Source of the DNA: Escherichia coli
Lineage (GTDB): Bacteria > Pseudomonadota > Gammaproteobacteria > Enterobacterales > Enterobacteriaceae
DNA: 64,000 nt
NCBI RefSeq assembly: GCF_003334405.1
Contig: NZ_QOWM01000004.1
Strand: one strand, 5' to 3'
Shown: in pieces, positions 17,823-17,996 of the stretch
Layout: each line of letters begins with the position of its first letter
Numbering within the stretch: position 1 is the stretch's first letter
Translations under genes and position numbers: made by a program
Notes under the pieces: generated by a model
The model's input: the letters and a program-made list of their open reading frames with translations, nothing else
The model's database searches: none
Told to the model about the DNA's origin: nothing

Positions 17823-17996
17823 TTAGATGTCCGGTATTAAGTAAGTTGCACACACAATAATTTCGTCTTCAATTAAGATCTGCTTAACTAAAGAACGCTC
17901 GCTATTATTCAGATAATTCAAAATGAGCGTGGCTGTGATGATAGGAATTATGTTTTTTACGTGAATGAGAATAATCTTAAATGAGGAATAACTCAT
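17823..17996 (-). CDS. ymgI: Small protein, probably YmgI (57 codons)
   Basis: Manual minus-strand translation from ATG (complement of 17994-17996): [57 protein letters not shown]; below the 60-aa cutoff of the ORF track; size and position fit ymgI. No clear Shine-Dalgarno. Confidence 0.45.

Follow-up and report, generated by a model that had tools for sequence, protein, structure and literature searches.

An annotated small gene, ymgI, is probably a chance frame over the promoter and leader of the ymgG-ymgD operon in Escherichia coli

Introduction

RcsB homodimers recognize a box of the form TN(G/A)GAN4TC(T/C)NA, which was defined structurally (PMC7913699). In promoters of the rprA type a pseudo-palindromic match to this consensus stands next to the -35 hexamer and the operon downstream is Rcs-induced; the RcsB-bound fragment of the rprA promoter extends from -53 to -33. 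The genes ymgG and ymgD of Escherichia coli are also induced by the Rcs system (PMC2731931, PMC3599342, PMC5105897), ymgD being up 5.5-fold in a table of the RcsB regulon (PMC2731931). Colicin M and a LolCDE inhibitor each induce the two genes along with other members of the Rcs response.

Curation of the K-12 genome has led to a category of 'phantom genes', doubtful short ORFs in AT-rich intergenic DNA. The small annotated gene ymgI, placed directly upstream of ymgG, resembles them: it is short, AT-rich and restricted to one genus, and it has no Shine-Dalgarno sequence, no coding-type substitution and no protein evidence. Unlike the phantom ORFs, it is still carried as a CDS by PGAP and as a normal CDS in RefSeq, and all its homologues even bear a Pfam accession, PF28591, in the precomputed annotation of the protein database. 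A second likeness is to coupled upstream ORFs and leader peptides, with which ymgI shares the 1-nt gap between its stop and the following start as well as the weak start signal of the gene downstream; it differs from them in that its frame is not conserved and its start codon falls outside the mapped transcript.

The status of ymgI is mainly a matter of curation. K-12 and thousands of other genomes in RefSeq carry it as a protein gene; it figures in array and RNA-seq tables and is listed among the completely uncharacterised proteins awaiting assignment of a function. A 2025 survey placed it among 95 K-12 genes without EcoCyc information, at UniProt protein-existence level 4 (predicted only), and found no regulator or co-regulated function for it. 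A 'core perturbome' list holds both c1618 (YmgI) and ymgD, which is what one transcript would give. Neither of these papers, nor those reporting microarray and knockout data on ymgI, shows the protein. In the supplementary files, possibly incomplete, of ribosome-profiling, N-terminomics and transcript-end-mapping papers we found no mention of ymgI or ymgG, and the ROSE supplement of in vitro transcription start sites has no entry for either gene.

Here we describe the DNA that ymgI occupies. Our reading, to which we assign a probability of roughly 80%, is that ymgI is a chance open frame laid over an RcsB-dependent promoter and the 110-nt leader of ymgGD, and most likely no working protein gene.

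Results

The frame upstream of ymgG is the annotated ymgI

All coordinates refer to the window, the whole 64,000-nt stretch of an E. coli contig that was analysed (Table 1). A sequence-only reading of this DNA had proposed a 57-codon ORF on the minus strand immediately upstream of ymgG. An ORF listing with a minimum of 20 aa contains exactly this frame, opening with ATG, and its computed translation agrees letter for letter with the peptide proposed. At 57 aa the product does lie below the 60-aa reporting threshold that had been held responsible for its omission from the earlier ORF track. The adjacency to ymgG holds as well, with a spacing of a single base in place of the 2 nt given, which reflects another way of counting: the TAA of ymgI occupies 17825-17823, the TTG of ymgG starts at 17821, and only 17822 lies between them.

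The same 174 bases are found in K-12 BW2952, on the minus strand between ymgG and ymgJ, where RefSeq annotates them as 'protein YmgI' (WP_000122462.1). Strand, place directly upstream of ymgG and peptide are identical, and the comparison revealed no difference in sequence or location. Because the coordinates map exactly and the peptides are the same, the earlier assignment of the ORF to ymgI was correct and the feature is an already known one. What differs from the K-12 annotation is the interpretation, since there is probably no functional protein behind it.

Of 5426 complete E. coli genomes, 5111 contain the 174 bases, 3538 of them with at least 99% identity. Searched against Pfam-A and NCBIfam, the YmgI peptide matches no family; an Rfam search of 16500-19500 gave no match at E<=1.

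Table 1 Features of the ymgD-ymgI-ymgJ region, in window coordinates.
Feature	Position	Strand	Remarks
Intrinsic-terminator-like hairpin followed by a T-run	17101..17125	-	fits the 3' ends from RNA-seq
ymgD	17138..17473	-	second gene of the operon
ymgG	17477..17821	-	TTG start; signal peptide; glycine-zipper protein; first gene after the leader
5' untranslated leader of ymgGD	17822..17931	-	110 nt; fragment through which OmrA/OmrB repress ymgG
ymgI (b4593)	17823..17996	-	57 codons, ATG to TAA; identical to the annotated gene
Candidate leader-ORF start, GTG, ymgI codon 48	17855	-	in frame with ymgI
Predicted 11-bp hairpin, UCUUUAGUUAA / UUAAUUGAAGA	17866..17894	-	from the consensus fold; stems invariant, loop variable
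Candidate leader-ORF start, TTG, ymgI codon 26	17921	-	in frame with ymgI
5' end of ymgG-ymgD mRNA (transcription start region)	17931..17935	-	RNA-seq assemblies and 5'UTR reporter primer
Sigma-70-type core promoter (promoter scan)	17938..17965	-	-35 TTCACG 17965-17960; 16-nt spacer; -10 TATCAT 17943-17938
RcsB-box match, TAAGATTATTCTCA	17966..17979	-	consensus TN(G/A)GAN4TC(T/C)NA; within ymgI codons 6-11
ymgJ reading frame	18097..18300	+	GTG start; divergent from ymgI; 61 codons in K-12, 67 here

The mapped ymgGD transcripts begin inside the frame

Directional RNA-seq assemblies in the supplements of PMC3734233 include a reverse-strand transcript denoted 'b1171 b1172 b4593'. Its coordinates follow an older K-12 sequence, in which b4593 spans 1222213..1222386, and are converted to the window with an offset of 1204390. 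In five of the seven conditions the 5' end lies at 1222324/1222325 (window 17934/17935), and in the other two at 1222349/1222350 (17959/17960); the ymgI ATG (17996) lies 36-62 nt upstream of them. The 3' ends fall within 17103-17137. In that study b4593 was taken for a transcribed hypothetical gene that shares an operon with ymgGD; by the study's own coordinates, the transcript covers only the 3' two-thirds of ymgI.

A second mark of the 5' end comes from a 2026 preprint on the OmrA/OmrB regulon, which used a translational fusion named 'ymgG -110+90', which joins the 5'UTR to the early coding sequence. Within the forward primer, the ymgG portion, CACGCTCATTTTGAATTATCTG, starts at window 17931, and both OmrA and OmrB repress the fusion. 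We interpret the 5' ends from RNA-seq as primary starts and not as processing sites; the assemblies were made from RNA without enrichment for primary 5' ends and under conditions of which none induces Rcs, and a longer, stress-specific transcript is still conceivable.

The same supplements list short forward-strand fragments, antisense to ymgI and inside it, at 17918-17976 (1222308-1222366 in the old K-12 numbering), as well as a forward transcript for ymgJ that starts near window 18002. Together they are consistent with a divergent promoter region.

A candidate RcsB box abuts the core promoter

The upstream part of ymgI contains a match to the RcsB-homodimer consensus, TAAGATTATTCTCA, which is the sole one on both strands of the 64-kb window, where about 2.9 would be expected by chance. 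Numbered from 17931, it occupies -48 to -35 and directly abuts the -35 hexamer of the predicted sigma-70-type promoter, which itself ends 7 nt before 17931.

The arrangement is kept across the genus. The box retains its consensus in nine of ten Escherichia sequences: most other E. coli strains compared carry the perfect palindrome TGAGATTATTCTCA, E. whittamii has TGGGATTATTCCTA and E. albertii TAAGACTTATCTTA. In all ten sequences the 16-nt spacer is free of indels and the -10 hexamer reads TATCAT or TATTAT. Box, spacing and -10 are thus kept across species although 56% of the columns in this segment vary.

Like the promoters of the rprA type, this one combines a pseudo-palindromic consensus box next to the -35 with an Rcs-induced operon downstream, and the position of the box compares well with the -53 to -33 of the RcsB-bound rprA fragment. 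In contrast to rprA, the -35 of ymgG is weak (TTCACG or TTCCCG) and its RcsB site is putative. Judged from its sequence and position, the box would be bound by RcsB, and it offers a concrete candidate site for a strongly Rcs-induced operon.

The ymgG-ymgD pair also occurs in Edwardsiella piscicida, E. ictaluri and E. anguillarum (locus positions ~2968-3690), with about 65% identity to YmgG. There, ymgG starts with ATG behind a strong Shine-Dalgarno sequence, AAGGGAGG, and no ymgI-like ORF is present. The 6.3-kb loci contain no RcsB-box match either, whether upstream of these ymgG homologues or elsewhere; the arrangement found upstream of ymgG in the window is therefore specific to Escherichia.

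The ymgI frame lacks the marks of a coding sequence

We compared ten Escherichia sequences and counted the variable alignment columns at each codon position. In ymgI they number 18, 20 and 19 at positions 1, 2 and 3 (chi-square p=0.95); the corresponding counts are 10, 3 and 48 in ymgG (p=3e-13) and 4, 3 and 52 in ymgD (p=5e-18), and the contrast in codon positions between ymgI and its neighbours is pronounced (Fisher p=1e-10). Computed against four other Escherichia lineages, dN/dS is 0.59-0.98 for ymgI, 0.01-0.06 for ymgG and 0.02-0.03 for ymgD. Apparent dS is smaller in the ymgI frame (0.17-0.24) than in ymgG (0.37-0.48), which points to a nucleotide constraint independent of the reading frame. 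When the window is set against five divergent E. coli strains, ymgI shows 4-7 differences, of which 0-1 are synonymous; ymgD shows 2-5 and ymgG 1-5, all of them synonymous and in third position.

The loci of sister species, retrieved with YmgG as an anchor, do not maintain the frame. Three of them, from E. whittamii, Escherichia sp. E1V33 and the divergent strain SCPM-O-B-8794, read ATG AGT TAA in the ymgI register and so stop at codon 3; E. whittamii has more stops and a 1-nt deletion, and SCPM-O-B-8794 two more stops, including a TAA at codon 39. In E. albertii an ATA replaces the ATG and three stops interrupt the register. Protein homologues of YmgI are confined to Escherichia/Shigella, in 49 clusters, several of which are truncated or have other N-termini.

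The signals for translation are equally poor. The sequence-only reading had noted that no Shine-Dalgarno was visible, and this is borne out by calculation: the 17 nt 5' of the ATG (AATAAAAATATTGTCAA) offer no anti-Shine-Dalgarno pairing, with a best duplex of +1.5 kcal/mol against -3.2 kcal/mol for ymgG and -9.5 kcal/mol for minE. The G+C content of ymgI is 32%, compared with 52% in ymgG and 48% in the window, and its codon-adaptation value is at the bottom among the window's genes. Its length is within chance expectation. Of 2000 dinucleotide-preserving shuffles of the non-coding DNA at 17822-18496 (675 nt), 61% gave an ORF of 57 codons or more with any start codon and 43% with ATG only; for 17822-18100 alone the figure is 5.6%.

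The status of a real small gene, which the earlier reading had implied, we do not retain: the frame is without coding-type selection, it is broken in sister species, and its ATG lies upstream of the reported 5' ends of ymgGD. Certain observations nevertheless run against a chance ORF. The frame is intact in nearly all sampled E. coli genomes; frames of 48-53 codons in the same register, with other start codons, exist in some strains of E. albertii and E. ruysiae; and the gap of 1 nt before ymgG is typical of translational coupling.

These observations could be accommodated by a genuine, very young small protein of E. coli and Shigella only, possibly inserted in the membrane, made from a longer condition-specific transcript and coupled to the TTG of ymgG. 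Such a protein would agree with the intact, PGAP-annotated ORF in sampled E. coli of several lineages and with the 1-nt stop-to-start spacing, but it has to be reconciled with a dN/dS of about 1, with changes within E. coli that are almost all non-synonymous, and with the missing Shine-Dalgarno. Its transcript might arise from the promoter-like TCGACA-18-TAAAAT at 18165-18136 (minus strand), upstream of the ATG; however, none of the seven RNA-seq conditions gave a transcript over the ATG, and promoter-like sites are no commoner in this region than in shuffles (6 found, 4.4 +/- 1.7 expected). Residues 8-26 are hydrophobic, with a Kyte-Doolittle mean of 2.09, as a membrane segment would be, but the stretch coincides exactly with the AT-rich RcsB box, -35, spacer and -10, of which it is a mere translation. 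A 16-fold change of the ymgI microarray signal in a sigma-70 mutant would also fit a gene, and yet the 5'UTR accounts for the array and RNA-seq signals alike. In one reported test, the ymgI knockout was without a butanol-tolerance phenotype. We regard a young protein as unlikely, with roughly one chance in eight.

A still more doubtful variant sees in ymgI a de novo gene at its birth over regulatory DNA, with a longer transcript made under stress giving rise to small amounts of a hydrophobic peptide that selection has not yet shaped. Stops stand in the same register in the sister species, as TAA at codon 3 in all four and again at codons 13/14, and yet some of their strains have partial frames of 48-53 codons. 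On this view the frame would have opened in the E. coli/Shigella lineage, across promoter and 5'UTR DNA, once two or more ancestral stops had disappeared.

The 110-nt leader varies little

Sequence variation between the Escherichia sequences is unevenly distributed upstream of ymgG. Variable columns make up 21% of the last 110 nt before its start (17931-17822), 42% of the third-codon positions of ymgG itself (within 17821-17477), 56% of the RcsB box and core promoter (17979-17932) and 62% of the DNA further upstream (18060-17997).

A consensus fold of the leader predicts an 11-bp hairpin (Table 1) and a 5' helix with two compensatory pairs. The indel and the stop codon by which other species interrupt ymgI both fall in the loop of this hairpin. 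Suggestive as these features may be, the minimum free energy of the whole leader is not exceptional (z-score -0.4), and we therefore treat its fold as a hypothesis only. A helix pairing the TTG of ymgG with CAACUUA was not adopted, as it suffers two breaks in E. albertii. A predicted duplex between the leader and the 5' end of OmrA gave long-range structure and was uninformative; for regulation by this small RNA we rely on what the preprint states of the -110..+90 fragment.

Could the conserved leader instead encode a shorter ORF, whose termination at the TAA beside the ymgG TTG would aid initiation of ymgG? Conservation in the YmgI alignment sets in at L26-N27, shortly after the transcript begins, and the in-frame TTG of codon 26 might serve there as a start; this codon follows the 5' end by only ~11-15 nt and lacks a Shine-Dalgarno, and the frame from it to the stop is broken by the 1-nt deletion in E. 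whittamii and by the TAA at codon 39 in SCPM-O-B-8794. The alternative start, the GTG of codon 48, is a GCG in the latter strain. The weak TTG start of ymgG, with its weak Shine-Dalgarno (-3.2 kcal/mol), would fit such an ORF, and the TAA-G-TTG junction is invariant except in E. albertii, where the start is GTG. Against this, the substitutions show no third-position bias, and roles at the RNA level (pairing with small RNAs, the hairpin, the ribosome site) explain the conservation of the nucleotides. As the short frames are also broken in sister species, we hold a coupled leader ORF to be less likely than a young protein, and indeed very improbable.

A proposed regulatory front end for ymgG-ymgD

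We propose that 17823-17996 serves as the front end from which ymgG-ymgD is regulated, with the ymgI frame running across it incidentally. The upstream third of the frame (codons 6-20) contains the RcsB-box match, the -35, the 16-nt spacer and the -10. Transcription would start at about 17931-17935, roughly at codon 21-22, and the remaining ~110 nt would form an untranslated leader that reaches the weak ribosome site and the TTG of ymgG and on which the small RNAs OmrA and OmrB act. Upon envelope stress, the Rcs phosphorelay would be activated; phosphorylated RcsB would bind the box beside the -35 and recruit RNA polymerase, and the leader would then govern translation of ymgG and its control by small RNAs.

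Should this be true, the signals recorded as 'ymgI expression' report the transcription of ymgGD. With ymgI deleted, ymgGD would lose its promoter and leader along with the RcsB box, so that any phenotype of the deletion would be a ymgGD phenotype, and efforts to predict a function for the YmgI protein would be misdirected.

ymgJ and neighbouring DNA

The sequence-only reading could not locate a 61-codon ymgJ upstream of ymgI. The gene was missed because it is annotated on the opposite strand, and its frame here has 67 codons (Table 1). Its A-run at 18238-18242 has five A where K-12 BW2952 has six, with the result that the frame shifts after codon 47 and ends at 18300; it can be extended to 72 codons if read from a TTG at 18082. 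The best matches among RefSeq complete genomes over 17823-18300 all contain a one-base gap (the top one at 99.8%), which fits an extra A in this run. The window as a whole is K-12-like: a 22-kb stretch of it aligns to many RefSeq genomes with 100.0% reported identity and record spans 1 base longer than the query, in agreement with this single-base difference. The run of five is due either to a mutation private to this genome or to faulty sequencing of the source. PGAP also marks ymgJ as frameshifted in strain AVS0786.

The plus-strand segment 18039-18396, which holds ymgJ and a 39-aa 'hypothetical' ORF (18242-18361), shares ~88% identity with the DNA directly before the autotransporter gene ypjA elsewhere in E. 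coli (positions 2501-2859 of the paralogous locus). It looks like the promoter and leader remnant of a decayed autotransporter gene. The ypjA paralogue has an extra base in the ymgJ frame and so does not preserve ymgJ, whose own standing as a gene is doubtful.

The beta-barrel fragment of this decayed gene would be the ycgI pseudogene, which follows from about 18397 onward on the plus strand. With ycgH at 16021-17055 (+), another autotransporter pseudogene fragment, it encloses ymgD-ymgG-ymgI from the opposite strand; the ymgGD operon may have been inserted into autotransporter genes, or may be flanked by their remains. E. coli XYEH3783 (locus 2098-2247) is without the DNA from ~18086 to the end of minE and has thus lost both ymgJ and ycgI, while its ymgI/ymgGD promoter region is intact. 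In enterotoxigenic E. coli TW10598, an IS1 is inserted within the span that matches 17400-18500.
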